The notes under the pieces are model-generated. The model was not told where the DNA came from and did not search any database. It saw nothing but the letters and a program-made list of their open reading frames with translations. The position numbers and the translations under genes are program-made. DNA of 46,685 nucleotides from Verrucomicrobiota bacterium (GTDB lineage: Bacteria > Verrucomicrobiota > Verrucomicrobiia > Limisphaerales > Palsa-1400). Shown in pieces: positions 24,778 to 41,249 of this stretch. The DNA lies in contig JBEKOF010000001.1 of NCBI GenBank assembly GCA_049522055.1, positions 1 to 46,685 of the forward strand. The letters are read 5' to 3'. Numbering within the stretch: position 1 is the first letter of the stretch; every line of letters begins with the position of its first letter.

Positions 24778-25089
24778 TTGTTTCGCTGCGCCGCCTGGGG
24801 TTTTCTTTTTGCGTTGAAACCGGGTCGGACACTTTTGGAAAAGGGCGCGGGAAGCTGCTCGGACGCGGAATTGCTGGCCATTCTGCTCGGCAGCGGCGGA
24901 CGAGGATATTCGGCGCTCGACAGCGCCAATGCGCTCCTCGATCAATACGGCACGCTGGCGGGGCTGATGAATTGTCCGCTGGAGGAAGTCGCGCAAGTCA
25001 AAGGCATTAAAGTGGTGCGCGCGATTCGGCTCGCCGCGGCGTATGAAATCTGCCAAAGATTGCTCAAAGAAGTCGCTCGCGACACCTGA
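24778..25089 (+). CDS. radC: RadC N-terminal helix-hairpin-helix domain only (truncated radC, JAB/MPN domain missing)
   Basis: LLEKGAGSCSDAELLAILLGSGGRGYSALDSANALLDQYGTLAGLMNCPLEEVAQVKGIKVVRAIRLAAAYEICQRLL matches the RadC/YicR N-terminal half. The ORF stops at about 100 aa, where the JAB domain should begin. The start is uncertain (TTG 24778 or TTG 24814). Confidence 0.65.
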   Translation: MFRCAAWGFLFALKPGRTLLEKGAGSCSDAELLAILLGSGGRGYSALDSANALLDQYGTLAGLMNCPLEEVAQVKGIKVVRAIRLAAAYEICQRLLKEVARDT

Positions 25090-27689
25090 TGAAAACCCGT
25101 GAACTAGCCCGCGCTAAAATCGGCAGGATCCGCCCGCCGGCCTTCGAGCACATCAACCGGCAGATTCCGCCGGAATCGCACACGGCGATGTACGTCTGGC
25201 ACAAGTATTGGTCGCGCAAGACCTGGAACGTGGTCAGCGAACACATCCAGGCGTACACCAAACCGCATCAGGTTGTTTTCGATCCCTTTGCCGGCAGCGG
25301 CGTGGCCGCCATCGAGGCGGCGCGCCACAAACGCCGCGCCATCGTCTGCGACCTCAATCCGGCGGCCAGCCACATCACGGAACTGACGCTGCGGCGGGTG
25401 GACACGCTGAAACTCCTGGAAGCGTTCGAGCGCGTTCGTGAGCGCGCGCAGAAACGCGTGGCGGAGCTTTACACGATTCATTGCCTCAAGTGCGACCAGC
25501 CGCTGGCAGCAGATTGTTGCGTGCGCGAGGGCGATAACCTTGTGGAAGTGCGATACAAAAGCTGCCCGCATTGCGAGCATCGTTGCGAAAGCGGCTGCAA
25601 GCCCAAGCAGAAAGACCTCGACGCCCTGGCCGAACTGGAAGCCAAACGCATTAAGGAGTGGTATCCGAAGAACCAACTATATTACGACGACGGCACGCCC
25701 TTCATGAAGAAGGAGCATTTCGATTCACTCGACCAACTGTTCACGAAACGTAATTTACGCGCGGCGGCGATGATTTATGAAGCCATCGAACAGGAAAGCA
25801 GCCCGCAACTGCGGAAGTTTTTGGCCGGCGCGTTCACTTCGATGATTCACCTCTGCACGCGGATGTGCCCGGCCCTCGCGCCGGGCGAGGGCAATCACCA
25901 AACCGCCTTCAGTTCCACATGGACGCAACACAGTTATTGGTCGGCCCCGCGTTACCTTGAGTCAAACGCGTGGGAGAAATTTGAAAGCGCAGTGACAGGT
26001 CATCAGGGAATCATAAAGGCCAAGAACGAGACCAACGAATTGTTGGGCGGTGTGAAGGTCACGGACGACTGGCGGAAAGTATTGGAGGGCGAAGCCGACA
26101 TAGCGGTCGTCAATGATGATTGCGTGGAATTGATGAAAAAGATGCCCGACGAGTGTGTGGACTACATTTTCACCGACCCTCCTTACGATGCGTCCATCCA
26201 GTATGGCGAGCTTTCCTATCTTTGGAACGCCTGGCTCAAGAAAGATTATCTCTATGCCGACCGGATCACGGTGCATGAAATCGTGCGGAACGAGCGCCAA
26301 AAAAAGCCGTTCGACCTCTATTACGCGCTGCTGAACAACAGCGTGCAAGGCATGTACCGCGTCTTGCGCCCGGAGCGGGTTCTCACGCTGACCTTTCATA
26401 ACCCGACCTTCATGGTCCGCAATGCGACGGTGCGGGCCGGAGTGTTCGCCGGATTTGATTACGAACACATCCATCATCAGCCCCTGGCGCAGGTTTCAGC
26501 CAAGGCGATGATGCAGCCGTTCGGCAGCGCGCAGGGCGATTTCTACCTGCGTTTCGCCAAAACCGCGCGGCCGGCGCGTCCGATGGAAGAAATCAACGAA
26601 GATCGGTTTCGCCGCATCGTGATCGAGACTTGCCGGGAAGTCATCGCCCACCGCGCCGAGCCGACGCCTTACACGATTCTCCTCAACCAAGTGGACCCGG
26701 TGCTCGCCAGGCGCGGCCTGTTCGGCACGCTGCAAACGGGCCTAGACGTCAAGACGGTGCTGGAAGAAAGCATCGGCAAGGAATTCGAACTTGTGGAGGC
26801 AAGACTCGGTGGCGCGGCGGGCAAACTGTGGTGGTTTGCCGACAAAACTTTTGTCGCGCGGCTCGAAGCCGTTCCGCTGTCGGAGCGCGTCGAAGAAACG
26901 GTCTTTCGTTGCCTGCATGAGAAAGGCCGCGTCACGTTTACGGAGGTCTGGGACACGGTCGCGCGGGAGTTTCCGAACTCGCTGACTTCCGACAGCACGA
27001 GCATCAAGGAGGCCCTGGAGATCTTTGGCTGCAAGGCCGGCGCCGGCGCGTGGATGCTCAAAGAAGAAATCCGATTGAGCTTGTCGCGCCACAGCGAACT
27101 GATCGCCCTGCTGGCGAAAATCGGCGAAGGGCGCGGACATTCCATCTGGATCGGCCAGCGTGAACAACGCGAGACGGCGACCGGGGTGGTTGAGCGGGTG
27201 CAACTGCGCGATCTGGTCACCCAAAAGCCCGCGTCGTTAAAAGGAGTGAAAGAACTCGGCACGGTGCTCAACATGGATTTGCTTTGGCTTGATGGCGACG
27301 AGGTTGTCCGCGCGTTTGAAGTGGAATGCACCACCAGCATGACCAGCGGCCTGCAACGCGGTTCCAATCTTCCCCGGAATGTTCCCAAGACCATGGTCAT
27401 CCCCGATGAACGGGAAGAGGATTTTGCGCGGAAGATGAAATCTCCGTTGTTCAGCGAGCACTTCGAGAAAGACCAGTGGACACTGGCTTATTTCAACACG
27501 CTGCGCGAAGCGTTCACCAAAAGCAAAGGCAAAACCGCGCTGGAGTCGCTGTTCGGAGTGAAAAAGAGCGCCGGCAGCCGCACGCGCGAGGACCATGGAC
27601 CTGAAAACCAGGTGTTGTTTGATCTTCCAGAATCCGGCCGCAAAAGCCTTTCCCCGGGCATCGTGATGAAGGATGACGCGGCCGACTGA
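25089..27689 (+). CDS. Zn-ribbon-containing N6/N4 amino-DNA methyltransferase fused to a C-terminal nuclease-like (PD-(D/E)xK-like, Lys-less) module
   Basis: AdoMet motif I FDPFAGSG at 25278-25301. Cys pairs C132/C135 and C159/C162 at 25482-25574. Catalytic motif IV DPPY at 26175-26186 (FTDPPYDAS). C-terminal MDLLWLDGDEVVRAFEVECTTS at about 27273-27335. The start overlaps the radC stop (TGATG). Confidence 0.8.
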   Translation: MKTRELARAKIGRIRPPAFEHINRQIPPESHTAMYVWHKYWSRKTWNVVSEHIQAYTKPHQVVFDPFAGSGVAAIEAARHKRRAIVCDLNPAASHITELTLRRVDTLKLLEAFERVRERAQKRVAELYTIHCLKCDQPLAADCCVREGDNLVEVRYKSCPHCEHRCESGCKPKQKDLDALAELEAKRIKEWYPKNQLYYDDGTPFMKKEHFDSLDQLFTKRNLRAAAMIYEAIEQESSPQLRKFLAGAFTSMIHLCTRMCPALAPGEGNHQTAFSSTWTQHSYWSAPRYLESNAWEKFESAVTGHQGIIKAKNETNELLGGVKVTDDWRKVLEGEADIAVVNDDCVELMKKMPDECVDYIFTDPPYDASIQYGELSYLWNAWLKKDYLYADRITVHEIVRNERQKKPFDLYYALLNNSVQGMYRVLRPERVLTLTFHNPTFMVRNATVRAGVFAGFDYEHIHHQPLAQVSAKAMMQPFGSAQGDFYLRFAKTARPARPMEEINEDRFRRIVIETCREVIAHRAEPTPYTILLNQVDPVLARRGLFGTLQTGLDVKTVLEESIGKEFELVEARLGGAAGKLWWFADKTFVARLEAVPLSERVEETVFRCLHEKGRVTFTEVWDTVAREFPNSLTSDSTSIKEALEIFGCKAGAGAWMLKEEIRLSLSRHSELIALLAKIGEGRGHSIWIGQREQRETATGVVERVQLRDLVTQKPASLKGVKELGTVLNMDLLWLDGDEVVRAFEVECTTSMTSGLQRGSNLPRNVPKTMVIPDEREEDFARKMKSPLFSEHFEKDQWTLAYFNTLREAFTKSKGKTALESLFGVKKSAGSRTREDHGPENQVLFDLPESGRKSLSPGIVMKDDAAD

Positions 27690-27705: not shown

Positions 27706-30700
27706 TTATTGGACGAGGACGCGGTAAAAGCGGGCGGGGGGAGCCGGGAGGTTGGTGTCCTGGATTTGCATGGTTTGGCCGGTGCCCGGGAGGTTGGTGG
27801 AGAGGACGGTCCAGTTGGTGGAGAACAGGGAGGTGGAGGTCTCCAAGGCATAGGTTTTGCCGGGCACGGAGGGCCATTGGATGGTGAAATTGGCGACCGG
27901 GAATAATTGCAGGACGGAGGCGGGGTCCTGGGGATTGGTGCCGGCGACGTATTCCTGCCAGTTGGAGGCGCCATCGCCATCGGGGTCGAGGTTGGCGGCG
28001 GAAAGAAGATTGGAAACGGTGCCGAAATAGAGCAACCGCCACCAATCGGGAATGCCGTCGTTCCAGCTTGAGAGGGAGCGGTCGCTGCCGATGGTAATGA
28101 GGCCGTCCTGGATGGCGGGTTGGAAGAGGGCGAGGCCGTTGGGAGAGGCTGAGAAATGCTCGAAATGGACCAGGTAGGAGGAATTGGAGGTGAGGTTCGG
28201 AGGCAGGGTGACGGTGACGGTGCCGAGGAGGTTTGTTCCGCTGACGCCGGAGACGGTGGAATCAAGCCAGGTGGCGGCGAAGTTTTCCACGCCTTGCGAA
28301 TCGGTGATGGTGGGCGCACCCAGAGCGGCGGCGGGGGAGAGTGTGACGGTGTTGGTCAGGGCGGGTGAGCCGTCGAGCGGGAGGACGTCCACATTGAGCG
28401 CCAGGACGCGGATGGGATAAATGGGGTCGGCGGCCAGAACACGAATGGGGACTTGGACGGTCTGGCCGGCGGGTGCCTGAACACGGTCGGCGGCGACGGT
28501 AATCTGGCGGACGTAAGCGGTTGCGGAATTTGCGTTGGTGACGGCGCTGGCACTGATGAGGCTGGTGAGGACGGTTGGATTGGTATTCGGGACGGGTTGG
28601 GCATATTGGATGCCGTTGGTCCAGAAGCGCTCGTACCATGTCAGCGCAGGATCCAGGGAGCGGCGGTAGGTGACATAGATATCGTCCACATTGAGGGAAT
28701 TATCGCCGAAGGGGATGTTGTTGATATTGGTGTCGTTGCCATTGAAATAATTATTGTACTTCCCGTTGGAGGAATCCATGGCGTTAAAGTAATCGCTGTG
28801 AGGAGGAGGCGGGTTTTGTGCCGGAGGCCCGGTGACACCATTGTAAACGACCGCGCGGAAGACCTCCACGACATCATCGTTGAGGAGAGAGGCGTCGCCA
28901 AAATCACCGGCGTTGAACCATTTGAAAGGGAAAACATCGCCTACCAGGTAGGGAGTGACGCCCAGGTTGACCGTTTTGATGGCGTTGAGGGTGCCCGGTC
29001 CCAGATTGGTGGCATTGGTATTAGCCGGGGCCTGGATCACCACAGCCGCGGTGGGGTATCCAGCTCCGCTCTCGACTGCGGCGGAAGGCCGTGAAATTTG
29101 GATTTGGTATTGGTCATTCATGGCGGCCGATGCGGGAATCATGAACGAATAACCCCCAACAACCACCTGGCCGGAGGAACTGACAAAGACCGTTTCGTGG
29201 TCTTGAGAATAGGTGACCAAGTCCTGCCCGGTGGTGGTGTTGAACAGATTGGTTTCCGGAGCCACTTCCAGCCAGCCAACGGCAAGCAGATTCTCGTTGG
29301 TGTCGGCCAGGAGGAGGGATTGCTCGACGCCGTTGGTGAAGTAGGCCGGGGGAATAGTGATATAGACGGTCTGGCCGTCCAAGCTCTCCTTTTGCTTGAG
29401 CATGGAATCGAAAGAGTAGGTTGGCGGGACCGCTGGAGCGGATCCCAAGTTGGTGACGGTGACGTTGAACTGGAGGGAATACATCAACGCCCCGGGAACG
29501 AGGGTCAGAGTGATGGGGGCGAAGAATTGATGACCCGCCGAGCCGACAAACTGGCTGGAGGCCTCGCCATCGGGAAAGCCAAAACTGATCTGGTTTGGGA
29601 CATAATTGCTGGCGTTAAAGACCTCCACGGCGAGGGCGCTGGGAGAGAAATCCTGCCGGAACGCCTGGACGGTGAGTGTGACATTGCTGGTGGAAGGAAA
29701 GGAAATAGTCGCTCCGGTGCCTCCCGCCGCGATGGTGTTGGCGCCTCCAATGACCGGCGAAGAACCATCCAAGGTATAATACATTTGAGCGCCGATGGTG
29801 GCATCAGTCAATTGGACTGAAGCGGAGTTGTTGCCTATAATGGTGGGACTGGCGGTGATGAAAAGGAAACGCGCGCTGACGACAGCGCTGGGAGGGCGGC
29901 CCGGGGCTTCACTGATGACATTGAGCGTCACATCGGGGTAGGAGTTGTTCACCAACAAGGAGGGGCCGAGATCCTCGGCTGACAATCCGTCGCCGGCGTA
30001 AACTTGGAAGCTGGGCCAGCCGGGACCCGGGAGCGGAATGGTGTTGTCATAGGGATTGAGCGGAGTCGGACCGATGGTGACATAGTTAATGACGCCCGTC
30101 TCGCCTTCGATGGCGATGATATTGGTGTTATTGTCGAAGACCTGGTATGAGGCCTGGTTGAATTGCGACACCAGTTGTCCGTCGCCAGTGGGGGAGGGAA
30201 CAAAGGTGACGTAGCCGATCACCGGGTTGGAAATTGGCGGCAGGGCCGGGCCGGTTTCCAATCGGCGCAACGCATTGTTCCCCCGGTCCACCACATAGTA
30301 GCCATTGTCCAGGACATCCACGGCGAGGCCAATGGGATTGTCGAGCCGGGCAACGGCCAGGGTGCCGTCCACGTATCCCGCCACGCCGGGAATGCCTGCG
30401 ATGGTCTGCACGGAAAAGCCGTTGGGGCTGATGGAGTTTGGATAGAGGCGGCGGAGGGTCTCGTTGGCGGTGTCGCTAATGAGCAATCCCGCGCCGTTGG
30501 GGTCCCAAAGCAAGCCGCAGGGCTGGTCGAAGAGAGCCAGAGCGGCCTGAGACGAATCGTTGGTGCCGGGTTGACGCCGGGAGCCGGCCACCACGGTGAC
30601 GGAGAGGTTGGTGATGAAGCTGATGTTGCTGATGACGCAAATGGTGTTGTTTCGGGTGTCGGCCACCCAGAGGTTGTTGCTGTTGTCCACCACCACCGCT

Positions 30701-31293
30701 TGCGGGCTGTAAAATGAATAGTTGGTCACCTGCACGGTGGAGACATTGTTGTTGGTGTCGAGCCGGCGGATGGCGTTGTTGCCGGTGTCGGCGACGTAAA
30801 GGTTTCCCGCGCCGTCGGAGGCAATGCCCACCGGATAGCTGAACTGGGCGTTGGTGGCGAAACCATTGGAAAGACCGGCGATCCCCGGAGTGCCCGCCAG
30901 AAAGGACACCTGGGACCCCTGGGCGCTGTTGGTGACGAAGCGCAGCACCTGGTTGCCTTGATCCACCACCACCAAGCCATTGCGGTAGGTGTCAAAGACA
31001 ATTCCCAACGGCTGGGAAAAAAGCGCGGTCGAACCCAGCCCGTTGCTGTATCCGGCGTAGCTGGGACCTGAGACCCCTGCGAAGGGGATGACGGCATTGG
31101 TGCTGGGGATGAATTGGAGGATGCGGTTGTTGGAGGCATCGGTGAAATAAATAATGTTGTTGGGGTCCGCGGTGATGGAGTTGGGTTCCAGCAAGTTGGT
31201 GGCAGTGACGGTGGAGACCTGCTGGGCCTGAGCGCTTGCGGCAAAGAGGAACGCGACCAACGCTCCCAAGATGGAATGGTGTTTGGTTGTCAT
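27706..31293 (-). CDS. giant secreted NHL-repeat / cohesin-like / dockerin-like protein (paralog 2, 1195 aa)
   Basis: Signal peptide MTTKHHSILGALVAFLFAASAQAQ. Six NHL blades (YFTDASNNRILQF, VVVDQGNQVLRF, YVADTGNNAIRRL, WVADTRNNTICV, LISDTANETLRRL, YVVDRGNNALRRL). MYYTLDGSSP (chitobiase-C/FN3-associated type). Two cohesin-like beta modules, a dockerin-like DASLLNDDVVEVF..NVDDIYV segment, and a C-terminal DPDGDGASNWQEYVAGTNP plus terminal beta-sandwich. Confidence 0.8.
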   Translation of the reverse strand: MTTKHHSILGALVAFLFAASAQAQQVSTVTATNLLEPNSITADPNNIIYFTDASNNRILQFIPSTNAVIPFAGVSGPSYAGYSNGLGSTALFSQPLGIVFDTYRNGLVVVDQGNQVLRFVTNSAQGSQVSFLAGTPGIAGLSNGFATNAQFSYPVGIASDGAGNLYVADTGNNAIRRLDTNNNVSTVQVTNYSFYSPQAVVVDNSNNLWVADTRNNTICVISNISFITNLSVTVVAGSRRQPGTNDSSQAALALFDQPCGLLWDPNGAGLLISDTANETLRRLYPNSISPNGFSVQTIAGIPGVAGYVDGTLAVARLDNPIGLAVDVLDNGYYVVDRGNNALRRLETGPALPPISNPVIGYVTFVPSPTGDGQLVSQFNQASYQVFDNNTNIIAIEGETGVINYVTIGPTPLNPYDNTIPLPGPGWPSFQVYAGDGLSAEDLGPSLLVNNSYPDVTLNVISEAPGRPPSAVVSARFLFITASPTIIGNNSASVQLTDATIGAQMYYTLDGSSPVIGGANTIAAGGTGATISFPSTSNVTLTVQAFRQDFSPSALAVEVFNASNYVPNQISFGFPDGEASSQFVGSAGHQFFAPITLTLVPGALMYSLQFNVTVTNLGSAPAVPPTYSFDSMLKQKESLDGQTVYITIPPAYFTNGVEQSLLLADTNENLLAVGWLEVAPETNLFNTTTGQDLVTYSQDHETVFVSSSGQVVVGGYSFMIPASAAMNDQYQIQISRPSAAVESGAGYPTAAVVIQAPANTNATNLGPGTLNAIKTVNLGVTPYLVGDVFPFKWFNAGDFGDASLLNDDVVEVFRAVVYNGVTGPPAQNPPPPHSDYFNAMDSSNGKYNNYFNGNDTNINNIPFGDNSLNVDDIYVTYRRSLDPALTWYERFWTNGIQYAQPVPNTNPTVLTSLISASAVTNANSATAYVRQITVAADRVQAPAGQTVQVPIRVLAADPIYPIRVLALNVDVLPLDGSPALTNTVTLSPAAALGAPTITDSQGVENFAATWLDSTVSGVSGTNLLGTVTVTLPPNLTSNSSYLVHFEHFSASPNGLALFQPAIQDGLITIGSDRSLSSWNDGIPDWWRLLYFGTVSNLLSAANLDPDGDGASNWQEYVAGTNPQDPASVLQLFPVANFTIQWPSVPGKTYALETSTSLFSTNWTVLSTNLPGTGQTMQIQDTNLPAPPARFYRVLVQ

Positions 31294-34200
31294 GGCTGGA
31301 GAATTTGGATGCGATAGAAACGCACGCTGTCAAAGTGGTTGGTGAGGGATAACTGCAAGGAGTTGCCATCACCGAGATTGGTGCTGATGGGGGTCCAGTT
31401 GGTTTGGCCAAGGGCTGGGGTGGTTTCCAGGACGTAGTATTTGCCCGGGGCCGTCAGCCAGCTGAGATTGATTGTTTGCGGGGCGCCGGGGGCGAGGGCG
31501 GCGCCGCTGAATTGGAATTGCGAAGCGGCGTTGGTCGGATTGGTTCCGGCCAGGTATGCCTCCCAATTGGGAACGCCATCGCCAGCAGGGTCGGCGTCAT
31601 CGGCGGCCATTGCGTTGGTGATGCTGCCGAAATAGTAAACTTTCCATTCGTCGGAGGTGATTTGGGGCGGGGCCAGGGCGGCAGAGGCGACCCAGGCCGA
31701 GCCCGGCACGCTTTCCAACTGGTACTGGGTGTTCAAGTCGGGCGCGCCATCCACGCCGGTAAAGTGCAAGGTGTAGGACTGCCCCTTGCCGGCGGCGGGC
31801 GGGACTTGGAAGGTGATCGAACCGAGGAAATTGCTCGCCTGAAGCGGCGGGGAGAAGGGGTCAAAGAGCGACCAGGCGCAAACGATTTCGTTGGGCGCCA
31901 GGCCCTGGTACTGGGCGGGAGGAGGGATGCCCGCGGCGGGAGAGAATTGGAGAGGAGCAGCCAGGGGCGCGCCCGCGGCAGGCCAGAGCAGGGCGCGGAA
32001 TTGCAAACCGGCGAGGCTGTATCCGGGCAGGACATTGACATAAAGGGGGATGGAGGCGGTGTTGCCTGGGAGAAGGTTGGCGACCGTCCCCGCGCTCAGG
32101 GCCGCCTGCCTGAACCAGACGCCGGCCGGAAGGGAACTGGCACTGGCGCCGTCTTTTGACACGGCCTTGGCCGGAGAAGGTGGGTCCGGGGGTGTGCCGA
32201 TGGGGATGGGGGGACCGCCGGGAGACCAGGCGACTTGCTGGTGGGAGAGCACTCCGCCCGGGGTCCAGAACCGGACCCAGTTGTTGGTTTCCAAACCGAG
32301 GGAGCGAAAGAGAATATGCTGCCAATCGAGGAAGGTGATGAAGCCGTCGCCAATTTCACCGGAGGCGGTTTCAGGATAGACGTCCATGGCGCTGTAAGCG
32401 TCGCTGAAGGGGAATGGCACACGGATGCCGACTGAAGCCATGAGGGCGTTGTTGACATCGCTGTTGTCGAGGAGGCCAGCGCCAAATTGGCCGGAGGCAT
32501 ACCCGGTGGAAGGGGAGGAATCGCCCGCAAAGTACTGGACGTTGGAAACGGTCAAGGTCTGGTTGGTCATGGGAAGCAGCGTCACTTCATCCTGGGCGCC
32601 ATCGGAAGTGCCGGAGGGGTAAAGAATGCTGAGTTGATAGGATTGTCCAGGCAGGGCGGCAGGCGGAACAGGCACCTCCAAGAGCAGCGCCGCGGCAAAA
32701 TTTTGGACATAGAGTCCTGTATTGCCGCCCGCCGCGGAGACGACCAATCCCTGGCCGTTGGGGAGGAGGGTGTTGGTGTAGGCAAAGGTTTGGTAGGCGA
32801 CCGGCACATTTCCGGCCGCGGGGCCGACGAGGTTGAGGAAGTCGTTGGTGGAAATGGGCAAGAGGGTGAGGGAGGGGATGGTGTTGGTGTTGGGGGCAAT
32901 GGGGTTGACTTCGACGCGGAATTGGAGGGATTGCAAGATCTGGCCGGGCAGCAAGTTGATCACCAGGGGAATGAACGCCGTGGAGCCGACCCCGGCCAGG
33001 GCGCCGGCGGGGAAGCCGATTTGGTTGAAGGGACTGGTTTGACCGTTGGTAACCGCGCTGGTCTGTGTGGCGGTGGCGGCGATGATTTGGAGGAAACTCA
33101 GATCGTGCTGGGAATTGCACCACTGGAAGGACCCGACGTAGGCGTCATCCGGGACACTGAAGGTCATGTTGGTCACCTTCAGGCTGTTGGTGGTGGGGGC
33201 GGTGCCGTCAAGGGTGTAGAAAACGGAAGGGACGGAACTGGTGACGGCGATGGTCTGGCACTCTGGATAGTATCCGAAATTTGGCCCGAAGAGGGGCGGG
33301 GGCAGGACGACCACATTGGTGTTTGTGCCCACGATTATTAAGTTGGTGCCGGTCTGCGGCGCCAGCCCGACTCCCTGCACTTCGCGCAACAGGTCGTAGT
33401 AAAGTTCGGTGACGTAGATATTGCCGCCGGGAGCAATGACGACGCTGGCGGGCGCGCGGCCCGTGGCATTGGTGCTACTGGGACCGGCGGGGCCGTCAAC
33501 CCAGCCGGAATAAACCTCGGTCTTGCAGTCTGTCGCGGGCCAGTGCTTGGAGTTGACGCCGTAAATGGTGCTGACGGTTCCGCTGGCATCAATCCGGCGC
33601 AGGGCGTTATTGCCGCGATCGGCCACCACCAACTGGCCGTCCGCCGACCACGCCAAGCCGGCCGGGTGGTTGAAGGCGGCGAAGCGGGGATTGCCGTCAA
33701 TCCAATTGGTGGCGCCTTCGACGGGGACGAACGGGGCCGGAACGGAATTGGAGACGGCAGCTACCTCGTAAATGATATTGCTTTTCACGTCGCTGACGGC
33801 CAGCACACCGTCGTTTTTCCAAGCGATGCCGGCGGGGAGCCACTTAAAACCGTTGGCGGGGACAATGGTGTTGGAACCTGTGATGCCGGTCCCGTTTTGG
33901 GTCAACTCGAGGACCAGACCGTTGGTGAAGGCGATGAAGATATTGGTGTTGGCGTCCTGGGAAATGGCCAAGGCGCTGGGCGGGGAAGACAGGGGAAATG
34001 CGAACAACGGGTTAAAGGAATTGTTGTATTTAATCAGCTCATTGTCGCCCTGAATGAGAAGATAAAGGCTGTCCCCCGCATCCACCGCCAAAGCGATGAT
34101 CTGGCTTTTCGACAAGGGCAGGGAGTTGGTCAGAATGGTGGAGGTCTGGCTGCTGGAGGTGTTTCCGACCAGCGTGACCATGCGGACGGAGTTGTTGGTC

Positions 34201-34481
34201 CTGTCGGCGATGAAGAGAGTGCCCTGGGAATTGAGAGCGATGGAAACGGGGCCGTCGAATTGGGAATCAATGAAGGTATTCCCATTGACATTTCCGGAGG
34301 AGGAGCCGCAGACGGTCAAGGGGCCGCCGCCGATGGTGGTGACGGTAACATTGGTTTCCACGTAGTTGACTTGAGCGCGCAGGCCGGGGCAGAAGGCAAA
34401 AAGGCCAAGGGCGGCGAGCAGGCCCGCCGGGCCGGAGAGCAACCTCTTGATCCAGGCGCAGTTGATTGAAACCAGGTGCAT
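31290..34481 (-). CDS. giant secreted NHL-repeat / cohesin-like / dockerin-like protein (paralog 1, 1063 aa)
   Basis: Start taken at ATG 34481 (MHLVSINCAWIKRLLSGPAGLLAALGLFAFCPGLRAQ, a signal peptide). Six NHL-like blades (FIADRTNNSVRMV..VVADRGNNALRRI..), VFYTLDGTAPT, cohesin-like modules, LDNSDVNNAL..GDGFITFLDW, and a C-terminal DADPAGDGVPNWEAYLAGTNP module. Its TGA overlaps the ATG of paralog 2 (ATGA at 31290-31293). Confidence 0.8.
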   Translation of the reverse strand: MHLVSINCAWIKRLLSGPAGLLAALGLFAFCPGLRAQVNYVETNVTVTTIGGGPLTVCGSSSGNVNGNTFIDSQFDGPVSIALNSQGTLFIADRTNNSVRMVTLVGNTSSSQTSTILTNSLPLSKSQIIALAVDAGDSLYLLIQGDNELIKYNNSFNPLFAFPLSSPPSALAISQDANTNIFIAFTNGLVLELTQNGTGITGSNTIVPANGFKWLPAGIAWKNDGVLAVSDVKSNIIYEVAAVSNSVPAPFVPVEGATNWIDGNPRFAAFNHPAGLAWSADGQLVVADRGNNALRRIDASGTVSTIYGVNSKHWPATDCKTEVYSGWVDGPAGPSSTNATGRAPASVVIAPGGNIYVTELYYDLLREVQGVGLAPQTGTNLIIVGTNTNVVVLPPPLFGPNFGYYPECQTIAVTSSVPSVFYTLDGTAPTTNSLKVTNMTFSVPDDAYVGSFQWCNSQHDLSFLQIIAATATQTSAVTNGQTSPFNQIGFPAGALAGVGSTAFIPLVINLLPGQILQSLQFRVEVNPIAPNTNTIPSLTLLPISTNDFLNLVGPAAGNVPVAYQTFAYTNTLLPNGQGLVVSAAGGNTGLYVQNFAAALLLEVPVPPAALPGQSYQLSILYPSGTSDGAQDEVTLLPMTNQTLTVSNVQYFAGDSSPSTGYASGQFGAGLLDNSDVNNALMASVGIRVPFPFSDAYSAMDVYPETASGEIGDGFITFLDWQHILFRSLGLETNNWVRFWTPGGVLSHQQVAWSPGGPPIPIGTPPDPPSPAKAVSKDGASASSLPAGVWFRQAALSAGTVANLLPGNTASIPLYVNVLPGYSLAGLQFRALLWPAAGAPLAAPLQFSPAAGIPPPAQYQGLAPNEIVCAWSLFDPFSPPLQASNFLGSITFQVPPAAGKGQSYTLHFTGVDGAPDLNTQYQLESVPGSAWVASAALAPPQITSDEWKVYYFGSITNAMAADDADPAGDGVPNWEAYLAGTNPTNAASQFQFSGAALAPGAPQTINLSWLTAPGKYYVLETTPALGQTNWTPISTNLGDGNSLQLSLTNHFDSVRFYRIQILQP

Positions 34482-34495
34482 AGGTTTTAGGTGGT

Positions 34496-36160
34496 TTAGG
34501 GCTGATAAACCGGCTCGACGGAGGGTTTGGGTTTGGTCCAATCGTAGGGCACACCGGAATCCCAAGCCGGGTCCTTGCCCGTCGGGATGTCTTCGGCTTT
34601 GGTGTTCAAGAAGCGAGAATCACTGGGTTTGAAGTCCGAGTCCTGGATGATGGTGGGGGTGACAAAAATGAGGATTGTCTCCGCGCTATGCTCTTTGGAA
34701 TTGCTGCTGAAGAGGCCGCCGAGTCCCGGGAGGTCGCCCAGGAGAGGAACCTTGGTGTAAGTTTTGTTCATCAAATCGGTCTCCAGGCCGCCCAGCACGA
34801 GGGTCATGCCGCTGGGGACGGAGGCCACGGTATTGATGCTGCTGCGGTCGAAGATGGGGGCGGTGCTGACTTGGCCGTTTAAGGTATCCGTGGCCACCGC
34901 GGCGTCCACCTGAGAAATTTGCGGTTCGAGGGTAATGAGGACGTTGGAAGGACCCGCGATGCGGGGAACCACATTGAGAATGACGCCGACCCGGGTGAGC
35001 GGGCTGGTGTCGCCCGTGATTATTTTGTTATAATTAGGCGTGACGGTGGCGAGGGCCTGGGTGCCCGGCGCTCCGGTGCTTTGTGTCTGTTCAAAGAACG
35101 GCACGTCTTTGATGACCATCAATTGATTTTTCACCCCGTCCAGGGAAACGGTGCGCGGGAAGGAGATGGATTTGGTGTCGGCGTCGGTGTTTAAGAAAGA
35201 GAGGACGGCTTGGACTCCGCTGGCACTAAGGAAGGCGGTGGTGGGATTGATCCCGTTGGCCGTGTTGAGCGAAAAGCCTCCCGGAGCGGTTGGGGTTCCG
35301 GCAATGGAGGTGAGGAAGGTGTTAGTGCTGCTGATGGCCGTGGTCAACGGGCTGCCGGAGAGAGGGCGTCCGCCGGGGGCTTGGGGAGAGGTGCCGGCGC
35401 CGGAGGTGACGGTAGATGAATTGTAAGTCGCGCTGGCCAGGCCATTTCCAAAACTGACATTCTGGGCCGCCAAAGTTCCGCTCCAATTGACACCTTTTGC
35501 TGAATTGATGTCTTTGGTTGTTTCCACGATTTTGGCCTCGATCAACACCTGGCGCGTGGCGCTGTCCAACTGGGCGATGAGTTTCTGGGCGGCGGGGAGC
35601 TCTTTTTCGGTGGTCCGAAGGACGATTTGGTGGGTGCGGTTGTCTGGCAGCATGAGACTGCGAGGGGAAAGAGTGTTGCTGACTTCAAGGATGATGTTGG
35701 TGGGTTCGCTGTAGTTCAACTGGATGACGGCGGTGATCAGGGGTTCGAGCGCTTTGGGATCTTTGGCGGTGATGCGGATGATAGGGGTGCTGGGGTCGCG
35801 TTCCATCTGCCAACCCCAGTTGTCGAGCAAGGCCTTCAAGGCCTGGGCAGCGGTGACATTTTTCCATTTTTCCGTGACCTTTGGAGGGGGAACGGGACGA
35901 CCGTCCGGGCCGACGACGTTGAGCAGCCGGGGATCGAATTGGATGTTAAGGTTGGCCAGAAGGGCCAGCTGCCGGATGGCATTGGGGAGTTCGAGGTCGT
36001 CAAAAGCCACATCGGCCGGTTCATCGCCTGTGTAAGTGTTGGTGTTGGGGGCGGTCAAATCGGCGGGGGGGGCGACGGCCGGCTCGTTGGTTTGCGCCTG
36101 GCTCAGCACGACCGGGGCGGCCAGCAGGATGGTGATAAGGAATAACAGTGTGGTTTTCAT
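34496..36160 (-). CDS. pilQ: secretin (PilQ/GspD family outer-membrane channel)
   Basis: Signal peptide MKTTLLFLITILLAAPVVLSQA, an STN-like N domain (LPNAIRQLALLANLNIQFD..AAQALKALL), N-domain RQVLIEAKIVE, and the secretin core VVPRIAGPSNVLITLEPQISQV..SVPSGMTLVLGGL..KVPLLGDLPGLGGLFS..ILIFVTPTII. Confidence 0.9.
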   Translation of the reverse strand: MKTTLLFLITILLAAPVVLSQAQTNEPAVAPPADLTAPNTNTYTGDEPADVAFDDLELPNAIRQLALLANLNIQFDPRLLNVVGPDGRPVPPPKVTEKWKNVTAAQALKALLDNWGWQMERDPSTPIIRITAKDPKALEPLITAVIQLNYSEPTNIILEVSNTLSPRSLMLPDNRTHQIVLRTTEKELPAAQKLIAQLDSATRQVLIEAKIVETTKDINSAKGVNWSGTLAAQNVSFGNGLASATYNSSTVTSGAGTSPQAPGGRPLSGSPLTTAISSTNTFLTSIAGTPTAPGGFSLNTANGINPTTAFLSASGVQAVLSFLNTDADTKSISFPRTVSLDGVKNQLMVIKDVPFFEQTQSTGAPGTQALATVTPNYNKIITGDTSPLTRVGVILNVVPRIAGPSNVLITLEPQISQVDAAVATDTLNGQVSTAPIFDRSSINTVASVPSGMTLVLGGLETDLMNKTYTKVPLLGDLPGLGGLFSSNSKEHSAETILIFVTPTIIQDSDFKPSDSRFLNTKAEDIPTGKDPAWDSGVPYDWTKPKPSVEPVYQP

Positions 36161-36164
36161 AAAG

Positions 36165-36689
36165 CTATTGCTTTTTCTTTTCCAAGTTTAAGCGCGTTGT
36201 TCCGGTTTTACCCTCAATGGTGAGGATCACGTAGTCGGCGCCGATTTCGACGATATGCACAGTGACTTTGCCTTGGGCGGTCTTGACTTCCGACCTGTCG
36301 CCCGCTTCCAGAATATCGTTGTTGATGACGGCCATGCGTCTGGCCGGCGGGCCAGCGATGCCGGAGACCTTGAGATCAGGCTCCGCCGAAGCCGAAGGAG
36401 GGGTTTTTCCCCCCTCTGGCTGCATGGCAGATGCCTCGCGGGTCGAGTCGGGGTAAAACGGATCCCTGGTTTTGACGCGGGGCAACCTGTCGTCAAACAC
36501 GGAGACGAATTCGAGGGAAAGATTGGTGTCGGCGGTGGTTGGAGCGTTGGTTTTGGCGGCGGCCAGGGCGGGCTTGGCAGTAGCCGCGGGGGCAACGGGT
36601 TTGTGGCAAGCGGGGAGGAGCATCAAGGCCAACAGCAGCCCCACCGCCGCAAGCGGGGCGTTTCTGGCAGAGGGTCGGGAAAGTTTCAT
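36165..36689 (-). CDS. pilP: PilP-like lipoprotein
   Basis: Start at ATG 36689. Lipobox LALMLLPAC, a disordered Ala/Pro linker, and the C-terminal beta domain LKVSGIAGPPARRMAVINNDILEAGDRSEVKTAQGKVTVHIVEIGADYVILTIEGK. Sits between pilO and the secretin. Confidence 0.55.
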   Translation of the reverse strand: MKLSRPSARNAPLAAVGLLLALMLLPACHKPVAPAATAKPALAAAKTNAPTTADTNLSLEFVSVFDDRLPRVKTRDPFYPDSTREASAMQPEGGKTPPSASAEPDLKVSGIAGPPARRMAVINNDILEAGDRSEVKTAQGKVTVHIVEIGADYVILTIEGKTGTTRLNLEKKKQ

Positions 36690-37273
36690 TTTGCCTCCTG
36701 GCCGGTTGGCACCAAGGGGGTGACGATGTCGAAGCTGTAGAAGAGCTTCTCCGGATCCTCCCCCAGGCCGGCGGAGGAGATTTCGATGTTCTGGATGCGA
36801 TAGTAAGGGAAAGCGTTCTCGAAGTCGGCAAAGAATTTTCCGAATTCGCGGTAAAAGCCGACGCCCTTGATGTGGAAGGTGGCCCATTTGTACGGAAAGT
36901 GAGAGAGGAGGCCCTTATCGCTGATCTCCACTTTGCTGATGGAGCGAATGTTCACGCCTTTGCGGGGCAGGATGAATTGACCGATTTTGCCGATCATCCA
37001 GGCGTAGGGGTCATGCTCCGGGGCAAGATCGGCTTCCCGTTTCTGAAGGGTTTCCAGGCGGTTGGTAAGTTCCTGGCCGGTTTGAAGGGCGCCGCGCACC
37101 AGGATGTCGGCGTGCCGGAGAGTGTCGGTCATATTTTCGCTCTTCTTTTGGATGGCGTCCAGTTGTCTCTGTTGGGCCATGACGACAAAGTACCACAAGG
37201 CGGCCATGACCGCCACCGCCCCCACGGCAACGCCAGTCAATTGATCCCGCTGAGTTTTGGTGATTTTAATCAT
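36686..37273 (-). CDS. pilO: PilO-like pilus/secretin assembly protein
   Basis: Start at ATG 37273 (MIKITKTQRDQLTGVAVGAVAVMAALWYFVV). One TM segment, a coiled coil, then a ferredoxin-like part ..ATFHIKGVGFYREFGKFFADFENAFPYYRIQNIEI. ATGA overlaps on both sides. Confidence 0.6.
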   Translation of the reverse strand: MIKITKTQRDQLTGVAVGAVAVMAALWYFVVMAQQRQLDAIQKKSENMTDTLRHADILVRGALQTGQELTNRLETLQKREADLAPEHDPYAWMIGKIGQFILPRKGVNIRSISKVEISDKGLLSHFPYKWATFHIKGVGFYREFGKFFADFENAFPYYRIQNIEISSAGLGEDPEKLFYSFDIVTPLVPTGQEAK

Positions 37274-37950
37274 TGGTCGGTGCGGGTGGTGTCGGGGAAA
37301 TGGGTGGCGAGGGTGAATTTTTTGAACTGCTTGGTGGGATCCTGCGGATCGAGAGTCAAGGGGCCCAAAGTATCTTCCAGAACAAAGCCGTCGTTGCGTC
37401 CCAGGTGTTGGACGAAGAAGGGGAAATTGCAAAGGGCGTCCTTGTATTTGCTGTAGCCTGCGTTGGCGGGGTCGAAGTCGCGTCCTTCAATGGTGAGCTT
37501 GATTTTTTCGATCACGCCGCCAGGAAGCATGACCTTGGAGGAGCCGGCGCCGATGAAGGTGGGATCCTGGGTGGCGTAGGTCTGCTCCCCAATGATTTGA
37601 GTGACCGCGACATGGTCCACCACGGTGAGTTGGAGAGCGTTCAGGACACTGCCCCAGAGGAAGCGGTTGGTGGACAACCGGTCCAGGGCGGCCAGTTTTA
37701 GGTTCACCTCGGCGATGCGGGCCTGGAAATTGGTGACTTGTTCGAACTGGGGTTTTTTGTGATTCCACTGGTCGGTGCGATTGGCCAAGGTGGAATTGGC
37801 GAAGTAAATGTCCATTTGCTTTTTGACAATCCACAGCCCGACGACGATGACGAAAAACGCGGCGATCCAGATGCCGAGCTTGACCGGATCGCGCCGCCGC
37901 GCTTCTTCGGCGGCCTGCGCCTCAGCCATGAGGTTAATTCGGATCGGCAT
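37270..37950 (-). CDS. pilN: PilN-like assembly protein
   Basis: MPIRINLMAEAQ.. (the conserved N-terminal I-N-L motif that binds PilM in characterised systems), one TM segment LGIWIAAFFVIVVGLWIV, a coiled coil, and a C-terminal alpha/beta domain. Confidence 0.65.
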   Translation of the reverse strand: MPIRINLMAEAQAAEEARRRDPVKLGIWIAAFFVIVVGLWIVKKQMDIYFANSTLANRTDQWNHKKPQFEQVTNFQARIAEVNLKLAALDRLSTNRFLWGSVLNALQLTVVDHVAVTQIIGEQTYATQDPTFIGAGSSKVMLPGGVIEKIKLTIEGRDFDPANAGYSKYKDALCNFPFFVQHLGRNDGFVLEDTLGPLTLDPQDPTKQFKKFTLATHFPDTTRTDQ

Positions 37951-38201
37951 AATAATTTACGCGTTGGCGGCGGTGCTCGCCATTGGGCTGGTCCTAAATG
38001 GGCTGGACGAACTTAACTGTGCGCCAAAAATGTCCATTAAAACATCCAATACTGGTTGTGTGCAACCTGACACGTCCTGTTATAATCCAACCACCCGGCG
38101 AAAAGCAAGGAGCAACTGACAATGGCCATCGCTCCGATGATGGACCCTCCCTCAAGCCAATTCCGCGGAGTGCGCGCAAAGCACGCCGGCGCCGGTTCCA
38201 T

Positions 38202-38861
38202 TCAATTCTTGCTGGCGCCGTCCGCCGCCGGAGCCAGCGGCGCCGCCTCTTCGCCCGGCTCTTCCGCCGGCTCCGCTTCTTCCTGGGCTGGAGCCGGCTC
38301 GGCGGCCTCGACCAGTTTCATCGCCCCGATAAAGAGGGCGCTAAAAATTCCCCCGCTCAAGAGGGTGCCGCGGAAAAACGTCCAAGTGGGCGGATAGCCC
38401 GGCAGGCCGGTGGTCAGGGCCTGGATCCAGCCGGCGAAGGTCTTCGCGTAGAAGGGACTGGTAATCCAGGATCCGGTGTTGGTGATCAGATAAAACAAAA
38501 TCGCGCCGAAGATGCCGACGCAGAGCAACGTTCCCCACGGGCGTTTGCCGCCCAGGAGAACCCCCAACCCGATGATCAGAGCGTAGGCCGCGTAATTGGG
38601 GGCCTGGTCCCTGGCGAATTGAAGCAAGGAATAACCGTGCGGATGATAATAAAGAAAGGTGAGGAGCAAATCCGTCGCCGCCATGACGCCCAGCGGAACC
38701 GTCCAAGCCAGCCGCCGCGGGAGGTAAAGGCCGGCGCAAAAAGCCAAAGCATAAGCCGCGCTGAAATTAAGCGGCCTGTCGGCATGCGGGATGAGGCCGG
38801 GCCACCGGCTTAACGCGAACACCAAAATCAGGACCACGGGCCAGAGGATTCTATTTTTCAC
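38202..38861 (-). CDS. polytopic membrane protein with acidic Ala/Pro/Glu tail (DUF6580-like by memory)
   Basis: 219 aa with about 5-6 TM segments, NFSAAYALAFCAGLY and a C-terminal AAEPAPAQEEAEPAEEPGEEAAP tail. No catalytic motif recognised. Confidence 0.6.
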   Translation of the reverse strand: MKNRILWPVVLILVFALSRWPGLIPHADRPLNFSAAYALAFCAGLYLPRRLAWTVPLGVMAATDLLLTFLYYHPHGYSLLQFARDQAPNYAAYALIIGLGVLLGGKRPWGTLLCVGIFGAILFYLITNTGSWITSPFYAKTFAGWIQALTTGLPGYPPTWTFFRGTLLSGGIFSALFIGAMKLVEAAEPAPAQEEAEPAEEPGEEAAPLAPAADGASKN

Positions 38862-39426: not shown

Positions 39427-39921
39427 TCAATGACGGTGGGCCAGCCAGTAAAAAATCAAAAGGCACAGCCCGACCATAAATGCCAAGAGAAGAAAGAAGC
39501 GGTTGCGGGCGATGCGCTTTTCGTAGCGCAAGGGCCGCAACCCCTGGATGCTGCCGGCGGCCAGATAGTTGATGAGTTTGGGATTGGCCAGGGGGCGGCC
39601 GCCCACCTGTTTTCTCAGACGCTCCCACAGGGCCCAAAGATCGAATTTGCGCACGCCCAGGTCGTTGAAATGCTCAGGGGTGGCAGGAGGCTCGGAGTAG
39701 CCGGTCAACCGATGCTGGCGAACATTCTCGAAGACCGGCTCGCCCGCCGAAGGCGCGGCGGCGGCGCCGGAAGGGTAAACGGTGGAACGCAAACGAGGCC
39801 CCTGGCCGGACTGGACTTGCTGGTTGAGCTTTTTGATCCGGGCTTGGAGCGCGGAGATTTCGGCGTTTAACGCACGGGCGCGGTCAGTGATGGGATTGAC
39901 ATTTTTTTTGAAGAGTCCCAT
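39427..39921 (-). CDS. hypothetical tail-anchored coiled-coil protein (164 aa)
   Basis: N-terminal heptad-like RARALNAEISALQARIKKLNQQV and a single C-terminal TM segment FFLLLAFMVGLCLLIFYWL. No homology recognised. Confidence 0.55.
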   Translation of the reverse strand: MGLFKKNVNPITDRARALNAEISALQARIKKLNQQVQSGQGPRLRSTVYPSGAAAAPSAGEPVFENVRQHRLTGYSEPPATPEHFNDLGVRKFDLWALWERLRKQVGGRPLANPKLINYLAAGSIQGLRPLRYEKRIARNRFFLLLAFMVGLCLLIFYWLAHRH

Positions 39922-39932
39922 TGGCGGTCAGG

Positions 39933-40619
39933 CTATCGGCGCAGCAATAATACGATGAAAATCGCCAGTCCCACCAGCCAGATAGGCCAGGTGACGGCCA
40001 GGCCGATCTTGCAAAGCTGCGCCAGGCTGGCGGTGGCCAGGGAGGGAGGACGGGCTTTGGGCGCGGCGGTTTCCGTCTCGGCGGCGGGAATTCCGGCGAG
40101 GAAAGGAAATTTCAATCGGGCGGAGTTCCATTCCATCCGGGCGTTTTCCAGGGTGGTCAGGGCGCGGGTCAACTCGACGGAGTAATTGTCCTGGGTCCAA
40201 AGTTGTTCATTGATGCCCTGGACTTTGGAAACCGCGTCGCGGAACTCGCCCAGGGCGCGGGCCATTTCGTCGGCGTCGCGGCGGGCGGTCAGCTCGGCCT
40301 CCTCGAGCAGGCCGATGCCGCGGGTCAAATGCTGGAGCATTTCGGCGCGGCTGGTTTGGTACTCCATTTGGCGGCGGCGCAATTCCTCCAGGCCGGCGCG
40401 CTCGCGTTCGAGGTCCTCCTGGGCGCGCTTGAGTTCAGCGAGCTTGATTTGTTTCTGGCTCACCAGGGACTCGATTTCCTCGCGGGTGGGCGGGCGGTTG
40501 GGAGGCGGAGGCGAGCCGGCGGGCAGCGCCGGTAAGGGCGCGGCGCAGGCGGTTTGCCGGGCGGACTGAAAATCGCTATCAACAAAATCTGAGGCGTCGT
40601 GATGCGCTGGCATGACCAC
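39933..40619 (-). CDS. hypothetical tail-anchored coiled-coil protein (~226 aa)
   Basis: Pro-rich N-terminus, a long coiled coil (EEIESLVSQKQIKLAELKRAQEDLERERAGLEELRRRQMEYQ..), and a C-terminal TM segment IGLAVTWPIWLVGLAIFIVLLL. GTG start at 40619 or ATG at 40613. Confidence 0.55.
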   Translation of the reverse strand: MVMPAHHDASDFVDSDFQSARQTACAAPLPALPAGSPPPPNRPPTREEIESLVSQKQIKLAELKRAQEDLERERAGLEELRRRQMEYQTSRAEMLQHLTRGIGLLEEAELTARRDADEMARALGEFRDAVSKVQGINEQLWTQDNYSVELTRALTTLENARMEWNSARLKFPFLAGIPAAETETAAPKARPPSLATASLAQLCKIGLAVTWPIWLVGLAIFIVLLLRR

Positions 40620-40670
40620 GAGTATAAGGCGGGGAATGAAAAAGGCAAATGTGAAAATTGAATTGGGGGA

Positions 40671-40961
40671 TTAACGGAGGCGGTCCCGCCAGTAACCAGG
40701 CCGCCGTTTCATGTGCATGACCGCCACAACAAGCACTCGGCCCGGTTGATCCATATAGAGCATCGCATAGGGAAACACGCTGTCGAAGTGGCGGCGGATG
40801 GGCGGATCAAACAAGGGAAACTGTTGCGGCTCACGCCAGATGTCCAGGAGGAGGCGTTCGATTTGGTCGTAAAACCTTCTGCCCAATTCCGGGTCGAGAC
40901 GCGCGTAATATCTGGCCGCCTCGGCATATTCCTCGTTTGCGGCAGGATGAAAGGAGTGTGG
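40671..40961 (-). pseudogene. ParE/RelE-family toxin reading frame lacking a canonical start (first start-like codon is TTG at 40886)
   Basis: The frame is open from 40961 and reads PHSFHPAANEEYAEAARYYARLDPELGRRFYDQIERLLLDIWREPQQFPLFDPPIRRHFDSVFPYAMLYMDQPGRVLVVAVMHMKRRPGYWRDR, the typical RelE/ParE pattern. It lies in frame directly behind the antitoxin TAG (40962-40964). Confidence 0.6.
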
Positions 40962-41192: not shown

Positions 41193-41249
41193 GGCGCGCT
41201 TAATCTATAACCTTCCGGATTTGGATTCAACCCGCATTATTTTGGCGCT

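Follow-up and report, generated by a model that had tools for sequence, protein, structure and literature searches.

A 46.7-kb window of the genome of one Verrucomicrobiota bacterium from soil or fresh water, the whole stretch of DNA that we analyzed, contains a six-gene operon in which homologs of pilN, pilO, and pilP and a gene encoding a secretin are followed by two genes encoding giant proteins, giant 1 and giant 2. The pairing of secretin and giant is conserved across a wide span of Verrucomicrobiota, for giant 2 down to approximately 35% identity, and recurs far beyond what chance would produce. We favor, with modest confidence, the reading that the giants are accessory surface proteins with a binding or scaffold role and that they depend on the half of a type IVa pilus-type machine composed of PilN, PilO, PilP, and the secretin PilQ. 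What is new is a widely conserved, apparently unreported accessory family in a pilMNOPQ operon rather than a categorically new secretion system. Full-text literature searches returned no description of NHL or cohesin-fold proteins tied to pilQ or to Verrucomicrobial pili, or of this operon of Verrucomicrobiota, in agreement with the initial annotation of this DNA, which knew of no such secretin–cargo operon.

Organization and Conservation of the Operon

The six genes are packed head-to-tail on the minus strand, and their open reading frame (ORF) coordinates agree with those in the initial annotation: pilN (37270..37950, 226 aa), pilO (36686..37273, 195 aa), pilP (36165..36689, 174 aa), the secretin gene (34496..36160, 554 aa), and the genes encoding giant 1 (31290..34481, 1063 aa, "par1" type) and giant 2 (27706..31293, 1195 aa, "par2" type). 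The tight packing described there is borne out in every detail, with ATGA start/stop overlaps at 37270–37273 (pilN/pilO), 36686–36689 (pilO/pilP), and 31290–31293 (giant 1/giant 2), a gap of 4 nt between pilP and the secretin gene, and a gap of 14 nt (34482–34495) between the secretin gene and the giant 1 gene. Scans for a sigma-70-like consensus and for terminators returned nothing at the gene junctions, including the secretin/giant 1 junction (34481–34496), where an internal promoter or terminator would have counted against the initial annotation.

Giant 2 has more than 1000 homologs that align over the full length at 35–70% identity. When one genome per species was scanned, with family members retrieved by the pattern [FA]xW[FYL]N[AI]G[DE]FG, 223 species-level genomes were found to encode a relative of the giants, nearly all of them labelled Verrucomicrobiota, Limisphaerales, or Pedosphaera apart from a few plainly wrong labels of metagenome-assembled genomes (MAGs). 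The operon on the contigs in question (L007, L011, L039, L041, L047, L048, L074, L076, L077, and L082) is Verrucomicrobial, and mistakes of binning or taxonomy probably account for the labels of the MAGs (Klebsiella, Bifidobacteriaceae, Saccharimonadales, Baltobacteraceae, Bryobacteraceae, Acidoferrum, and Limnocylindrales).

We fetched 80 loci and searched them with the proteins of the window and with PilM, PilN, PilO, and PilP of locus L004. The secretin gene lies immediately 5′ of the first giant gene in 49 of the 52 loci that have more than 2.5 kb of upstream DNA; the ORFs of the other three are fragmented, and a secretin is present in these too. The gap between secretin and giant genes has a median of 26 nt (56 loci), and overlaps of pilN with pilO and of pilO with pilP are usual. 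No giant gene located away from a secretin gene was found among the fetched loci with enough flanking DNA, so the adjacency of secretin and NHL-giant genes, which had been named beforehand as a test in related genomes, is conserved. A single giant gene is present in 8 loci, two in 34, and three in 16. The last gene of the cluster is always of the par2 type, which is also the sole giant in single-giant loci; par1-type giants occupy the same position in related loci and are present in zero to two copies. Between the window and a distant clade, giant 2 is 40.8%, giant 1 36.5%, the secretin 40.2%, and PilN, PilO, and PilP 31–34% identical.

Domain Architecture of the Giants

The giants are diverged paralogs (27% identity across 735 aa, E 2e-36), and both have N-termini that by eye resemble signal peptides. 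The N-terminal region of each is matched by Pfam NHL (5.1e-13 for giant 1 and 3.5e-20 for giant 2) and by TEN_NHL; in giant 2 this β-propeller extends approximately from aa 25 to 350 (30244..31221, minus strand) and contains six D-x-x-N-x-x-[ILV] blade motifs at aa 51–335. A YYTLDG-type immunoglobulin (Ig)-like module follows, for which the match to CHB_HEX_C_1 lies above the Pfam cutoff of 22 bits in giant 1 (2.5e-5, 24.6 bits) and just under it in giant 2 (2.6e-4, 21.3 bits), and the remainder of giant 1 includes a region homologous to the C-terminal half of giant 2. The signal peptides, the NHL propeller, and the CHB_HEX_C module that the initial annotation assigned to both proteins are thereby supported, the first of these by eye; its cohesin-like modules hold as a fold and not as a Pfam match, and its dockerin-like segment does not hold.

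No Pfam Cohesin or Dockerin match was found in the proteins of the window, and none is recorded for the 120 listed homologs; a direct sequence search of the C-terminal half of giant 2 against the PDB also gave no match. The AlphaFold2 model of giant 2 aa 540–1195, built with 52 homologs, has a predicted local distance difference test score (pLDDT) of 88 and a predicted template modeling score (pTM) of 0.86. Two β-sandwiches are apparent in this model: the first (model residues 28–212) corresponds approximately to aa 567–751 (29041..29595, minus strand, approximate bounds), and the second (model residues 391–529), which we assume to be a second cohesin-fold module, corresponds approximately to aa 930–1068 (28090..28506, minus strand, bounds likewise approximate). 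Cohesins dominate the Foldseek matches of the model, with dozens matched and all of the top matches among them (E down to 2e-9, for 6kgd_A, and TM up to 0.77, with 5nrm_A at TMt 0.77), a non-cellulosomal archaeal cohesin is also well matched, and the cohesin-like label therefore stands at the level of the fold. The match to a type II cohesin dyad (3l8q) spans approximately 550 columns and is loose (root-mean-square deviation of approximately 18 Å, template modeling [TM] score of approximately 0.27); therefore, support for two modules comes mostly from the two β-sandwiches of the model. For the cohesin modules, then, the predicted structure supports the fold, and sequence searches do not support membership in the family.

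The two cohesin-fold modules flank a segment of acidic loops followed by helices (aa 779–884; 28642..28959, minus strand) that is conserved better than any other stretch of the family and has columns of invariant Gly, Asp, and Phe in ...W-F-N-A-G-D-F-G-D... and ...F-G-D-G-x-L-x-V-x-D-V.... This segment is modeled confidently within the C-terminal half and with low confidence alone (pLDDT 68), which suggests that it packs against the adjoining modules. We rejected its assignment as a dockerin. Pfam searches of 27 family members at E ≤ 10 returned no dockerin, a profile of the segment against the PDB matched just an EF-hand protein (E 0.36), and Foldseek with the isolated AlphaFold2 model gave no match; this fold test is weak because the isolated model is of low confidence, and the sequence tests are clear. 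The self-assembling cohesin–dockerin scaffold that the initial annotation envisaged is therefore without a basis as yet.

The C-terminal tail of giant 2 (aa 1076–1195; 27709..28068, minus strand) is composed of a TSP3-like DPDGDG..NW.EY.AGTNP repeat, with a weak match to Pfam TSP3_bac, and a small β-sandwich ending in FYRV. Giant 1 carries the same C-terminal module at 31293–31650, the ending being FYRV or FYRI across the giants. The 120-aa tail matches 22,893 representative protein clusters and forms the extreme C-terminus of many unrelated proteins of 356–4337 aa. Its first ~50 aa occur in up to 40 repeats in proteins that reach 5,872 aa, and the β-sandwich part is without a Pfam model. The tail has the look of a sorting or anchoring element that has yet to be described.

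PilN, PilO, PilP, and the Secretin

PilN, PilO, and PilP had no Pfam family match and NCBIfam gave little, and their identities were tested by searching PDB sequences with profiles built from 28 orthologs. PilN starts with MPIRINLMAE, retaining the I-N-L motif that the initial annotation had pointed out, and continues with one transmembrane helix and a periplasmic domain. Its ortholog profile matches Myxococcus xanthus PilN (3jc8_Na, E 1.8e-6, residues 1–131), and there is a weak NCBIfam match to the PilN-like part of Amuc_1101_fam (E 0.004). The MPIRINL.. start, which is predicted to bind PilM, and the transmembrane helix are kept across 40 PilN orthologs. The PilO profile matches M. xanthus PilO (3jc8_Oa, E 2.4e-4, residues 16–169), and weak matches to Pfam PilO and to T2SSM are found in the orthologs of L004 and L086, respectively. 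PilP is a probable lipoprotein with a signal peptide that contains a Cys (...LLPAC) and a weak Pfam T2SSB match (E 0.001, residues 115–161). The match of its profile to M. xanthus PilP is not significant (E = 2), and its position is occupied in all loci.

The secretin has a signal peptide followed by Secretin_N (Pfam, 1.5e-6) and the secretin pore domain (Pfam Secretin, 1.8e-31), both above the cutoff; no AMIN domain was detected by Pfam in its 554 aa. Its NCBIfam matches are to PilQ (1.1e-41, 143 bits vs. a cutoff of 284) and to GspD (1.6e-40, 139 bits vs. a cutoff of 351), both sub-cutoff, and against the PDB it matches GspD at 1.2e-21 and PilQ at approximately 2e-18. The labels given to these four genes at the outset are therefore supported for the secretin by Pfam and for PilN and PilO by profiles, whereas PilP is placed mainly by synteny. 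We consider the identities of the small genes to be settled by context, with PilP a probable assignment, because the same four genes follow a gene with PilM_2/FtsA domains in related loci. The secretin gene is broken into several ORFs in some assemblies (L001/L012, 5185–6953; L005, 4191–5988; L033, 3162–4719), which may reflect either pseudogenization or frameshift errors of assembly.

Absence of pilM in the Subclade of the Window

The operon is preceded in the window by a non-coding leader of 251 nt (37951..38201, minus strand), which we presume to be the promoter region and which contains neither an ORF nor a remnant of pilM, and then by a gene encoding a 219-aa DUF6580 membrane protein (38202..38861, minus strand; Pfam DUF6580, E 3.5e-32) in the place of the pilM of relatives; the ~250 bp of non-coding DNA and the small membrane protein noted in the initial annotation are thus confirmed. 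Thirty-six loci have enough DNA 5′ of pilN to be informative for pilM, and these fall into two clades. The 23 more distant relatives have pilM 3–15 nt 5′ of pilN, as a 357-aa gene with Pfam PilM_2/FtsA domains that is annotated as PilM in the source records. The 13 close relatives of the window have no pilM 5′ of pilN, and in 9 of these the DUF6580 gene lies directly 5′ of pilN. Loci listed with the DUF6580 gene in this place are L002, L003, L007, L011, L013–L016, L063, L067, and L072. Because 23 of 36 relatives begin the operon with pilM, its absence is derived and subclade specific: the operon is otherwise a canonical pilMNOPQ operon, and pilM has been lost from its head only in the subclade of the window.

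The claim that the window contains no pilM, pilus ATPase, platform, or pilin gene holds for all 46.7 kb, in which no remnant of pilM was found either, and neither pilM nor a remnant is present within ~10 kb on either side of the operon in 17 close-relative loci. The cytoplasmic N-terminus of PilN docks PilM in type IV pilus machines that have been studied. Whether or not pilM is adjacent, this N-terminus (MPIRINLLAEAQ..RR.DPVKR) shows the same degree of conservation, and its invariance where no pilM is adjacent points to a PilM encoded elsewhere; PilM is, we judge from this conservation, probably encoded at another site in the genome. In a PilM profile search of 5.8 billion proteins, the 120 matches listed all come from pilM-first operons. 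The pilMNOPQ operons of Pseudomonas and Neisseria normally lack pilB, pilC, and pilin genes, and the absence of these genes here is therefore no argument against a pilus. L001 belongs to a chromosome of 6 Mb from the subclade without pilM; ~0.5 kb 5′ of its pilN cluster (2119–2916), adjoining the gene for a giant PATR-repeat protein, it encodes a protein of 265 aa whose prepilin-type N_methyl domain is weakly matched.

These observations bear on the initial reading of the locus, in which PilN, PilO, PilP, and the secretin have been turned to a new use that involves neither PilM nor a pilus, namely the dedicated export or anchoring of a self-assembling cohesin–dockerin scaffold formed by the giants. 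We consider this explanation quite unlikely. It would accommodate the lack of pilM around the operon in the window and its close relatives, the conserved adjacency of secretin and giant together with a real cohesin fold, and a secretin that is equally GspD-like and PilQ-like; however, the 23 more distant relatives start the same operon with pilM, the PilM-docking N-terminus of PilN is invariant even where pilM is not adjacent, the dockerin is unsupported, and sister operons exist without giants (see below). Moreover, judging by type II secretion and type IV pili, a secretin with PilNOP is not known to have an energy source for export unless an ATPase and a pilin-type piston are present.

Operons without Giant Genes and the Role of the Giants

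A search from the PilM side identified two long contigs on which pilM-pilN-pilO-pilP-secretin is not followed by a giant gene. The PilM proteins of these giant-free operons are 72–76% identical to PilM of a giant-bearing locus, and identities of PilM among giant-bearing loci have a minimum of 39.5% and a median of 50%; the giant-free operons therefore sit inside the diversity of giant-bearing operons. In giant-bearing L005 the cluster is followed by a convergent GBBH-like_N gene that is also present at this place in both giant-free contigs, and in L086 an unrelated 302-aa secreted protein (14682–15590) is encoded 3′ of the secretin gene instead of a giant. The existence of closely related pilMNOPQ operons without giants means that the giants are an accessory module and that the machine is not dedicated to them, contrary to the dedication of the alignment subcomplex and secretin that the initial annotation had proposed. 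To judge from gene content, the giants behave as a cassette that is lost or gained while the pilus genes persist. We had also considered the giants as a core part of the machine and gave this candidate less weight once the giant-free sister operons turned up. The giant-free contig of P0146 has a T2SSF (PilC-like) gene ~1.7 kb 3′ of the secretin gene.

We posit that the locus encodes the alignment and outer membrane half of a Verrucomicrobial type IVa pilus-type machine, with the genes for PilM, the ATPases, the platform protein, and the pilins presumably at other sites in the genome, and that in a sizeable group of Limisphaerales/Pedosphaera-like Verrucomicrobiota one to three genes for Sec-exported giants have been added to this operon. 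In each giant, a six-blade NHL propeller at the N-terminus would be followed by an Ig-like module, two cohesin folds around the acidic segment, and the generic tail; the giants would be made together with PilQ as accessory partners rather than core parts. They would reach, or be held at, the cell surface via the secretin or the pilus, where the propeller may serve to bind a polymer, particle, or other ligand and protein–protein attachment may be mediated by the cohesin-fold modules. We favor a functional tie to the machine because the linkage to the secretin is exclusive, the genes nearly overlap, and the giants change at a secretin-like rate; we favor a surface role that depends on the secretin or pilus because the giants are dispensable, vary in copy number, and have a modular build (propeller, Ig, cohesin folds, and shared tail). 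The function of the giants, their ligand, and their route of export through the secretin or pilus are inferences.

Several points weigh against this interpretation. The giants show the conservation of a core component, which suits a structural role no less than a role as adhesin or cargo. Operon linkage is what suggests that the giants interact with the secretin or pass through it, and conserved operon linkage may be non-functional, as exemplified by aroK-aroB, which follow pilQ in Proteobacteria. The assignment of PilP depends mostly on position and synteny, and the secretin is about as near to GspD as to PilQ in sequence. Finally, the 46.7 kb of this genome that were covered contain no pilM, pilB, pilC, or pilin gene.

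In one alternative, which we hold to be rather unlikely, the giants are not exported and instead support the secretin complex structurally in the periplasm or at the outer membrane, serving as its scaffold, gate, or plug or as a wall tether (compare TsaP, FimV, and secretin-plug proteins). The giants diverge at the slow pace of the secretin, which is below that of PilN, PilO, and PilP, their orthology and gene order are stable, no AMIN-type wall-binding domain was detected in the secretin, and propellers and β-sandwich modules often act as envelope scaffolds. Secretin-interacting plug proteins are reported for Pseudomonas aeruginosa (PMC13392014). Nevertheless, closely related operons lack giants and copy number otherwise ranges from 1 to 3, both of which are unusual for a core structural part, and a modular build with NHL, CHB_HEX_C Ig, and cohesin modules and a tail common to thousands of proteins is typical of surface proteins.

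In another alternative the linkage is only genomic, and the giants are ordinary secreted or surface proteins riding the pilNOPQ transcript with no functional tie to the pilus machine. The loss of giants without loss of pilMNOPQ, a C-terminal tail common to thousands of unrelated proteins, and the precedent of aroK/aroB as non-functional conserved neighbors of pilQ are what this view has in its favor. Yet wherever the flanking DNA of a locus suffices, a giant directly follows the secretin; gaps between the genes are minimal and starts overlap stops, and the adjacency survives divergence to approximately 35% identity and changes in giant copy number. We regard an incidental linkage as quite improbable.

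Verrucomicrobiota are abundant degraders of complex polymers in soil, peat, and fresh water, most of them uncultured, and their substrate capture is poorly understood, Akkermansia with its pilus-like secretin locus being the one case studied. The giants offer a tangible candidate for a new class of accessory or cargo proteins of type IV pili and exemplify the cohesin fold far outside cellulosomes. Natural contrasts make the idea directly testable: operons differ in the number of giants, from 0 to 3, and in whether pilM adjoins them.

Promoter Scans and Neighboring Genes

Neither a sigma-70-like nor a sigma-54-like consensus was found by scanning the leader (37951–38201). The region 5′ of pilN was searched for sigma-54 promoters because sigma-54 regulators adjoin the operon in L001–L003, where a convergent gene for a sigma-54-dependent response regulator lies 3′ of giant 2 and the window has a DNA methylase gene; no sigma-54 motif was found 5′ of pilN, and the window-wide count of the motif is below chance. 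Rfam and tRNA scans of the window gave no matches. The methylase gene encodes an 866-aa protein (25089–27689, plus strand), is convergent with the giant 2 gene, and ends 16 nt from its stop. The protein has two separate DNA-methylase regions, of the N6_N4_Mtase/D12 type at aa 43–136 and CcrM-like at approximately aa 334–389, and may be a fused or rearranged methyltransferase.

The remaining genes of the window are housekeeping genes (PheS, KdpBC, Ser/Thr kinases, an ABC transporter, LpxK, a heptosyltransferase, the DNA methylase, MGMT, Alr, AroK, and QueG), and no carbohydrate-active enzyme is found among the annotated neighbors in the window and in annotated related loci. Genes for an FHA-domain protein and two Ser/Thr protein kinases are dispersed in the window (6483–7670, 13416–14471, and 19649–21265), and an 887-aa protein (14649–17312) combines an ABC-2 permease with an RCC1-like propeller. 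Four ORFs 5′ of the MGMT gene (39427–42296; 164, 228, 165, and 348 aa, the second coiled-coil-like) have no Pfam or NCBIfam family.

Comparison with Known Systems

With the cohesins of cellulosomal scaffoldins and with non-cellulosomal cohesins such as that of Archaeoglobus fulgidus (2xdh), the giants have in common the nine-strand jelly-roll (TM 0.7–0.77); they differ from known cohesins in having 11–18% sequence identity to them, no Pfam Cohesin match, and no identified dockerin partner. Type II secretion systems differ in that the PilM and PilN parts are fused as GspL, whereas these are separate proteins in relatives of the window, and no gspC–M set (GspE, GspF, pseudopilins, and fused GspL) was found in the window or in annotated related loci.

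A comparable case within the phylum is the pilus-like Amuc_1098–Amuc_1102 locus (MUL2) of Akkermansia muciniphila, which has been implicated in attaching to mucin and taking it up (PMC13174399, PMC12418764, PMC5332112) and, as has been proposed, does so for complex glycans in general (PMC13174399, PMC12418764). In both systems a secretin is clustered with PilM/PilN-like, PilO-position, and unknown-fold secreted proteins, and the TSP3-like DPDGDG..NW.EY motif is common to the giants and Amuc_1099. The proteins of the window score far under the NCBIfam cutoffs for the MUL2 families (74.7 vs. 750 for Amuc_1098_fam, 16 vs. 650 for Amuc_1101_fam, and 20.7 vs. 50 for Amuc_1099_fam) and are therefore not orthologs of the MUL2 proteins. 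In Akkermansia, PilM and PilN are apparently a single 608-aa protein, as we infer from the alignment of PilN on the Amuc_1101 profile. Moreover, MUL2 lacks NHL/cohesin giants, and the window lacks an Amuc_1102-type pilin gene. A more specific form of our hypothesis, which we think doubtful, is that giants borne by PilQ or the pilus form a calcium-dependent, cohesin-based docking platform with an NHL binding head, a cellulosome-like, pilus-linked device for the capture of polymers or particles that would be common among Verrucomicrobiota of soil and fresh water and a distant functional cousin of MUL2.

Among proteins that accompany pili, PilY1/PilC and TcpF/CofJ are Sec-exported, as the giants are predicted to be. 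PilY1 is of similar size (~1000–1200 aa) and, like the giants, combines a propeller with a calcium-type acidic site. PilY1, TcpF, and CofJ are accessory proteins whose surface exposure depends on the pilus machine and whose copy number varies, with three PilY1 proteins in M. xanthus, and TcpF and CofJ are type IVb cargo encoded in the pilus operon. Neither their sequences nor Pfam relate the giants to PilY1 (Neisseria_PilC) or TcpF, and unlike in PilY1, their propeller is N-terminal and of the NHL type and their genes adjoin pilQ rather than those for minor pilins.

The locus also resembles the type IVa pilus operon pilMNOPQ of P. aeruginosa, Neisseria meningitidis, M. xanthus, and Thermus thermophilus. 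The two share the order pilN-pilO-pilP-secretin with overlapping stops and starts, a PilN with the I-N-L peptide and one transmembrane helix, a probable PilP lipoprotein, and a secretin with Secretin_N and pore domains; in addition, relatives of the window carry pilM first, and ATPase, platform, and pilin genes presumably lie elsewhere, as in Pseudomonas and Neisseria. In contrast to these operons, that of the window's subclade is without pilM, and the secretin of the window is short (554 aa), has no detected AMIN domain, and is as close to GspD as to PilQ. In addition, one to three genes for NHL/cohesin-fold giants lie 3′ of the secretin gene, an arrangement that, to our knowledge, sets these operons of Verrucomicrobiota apart from every characterized pilMNOPQ operon.

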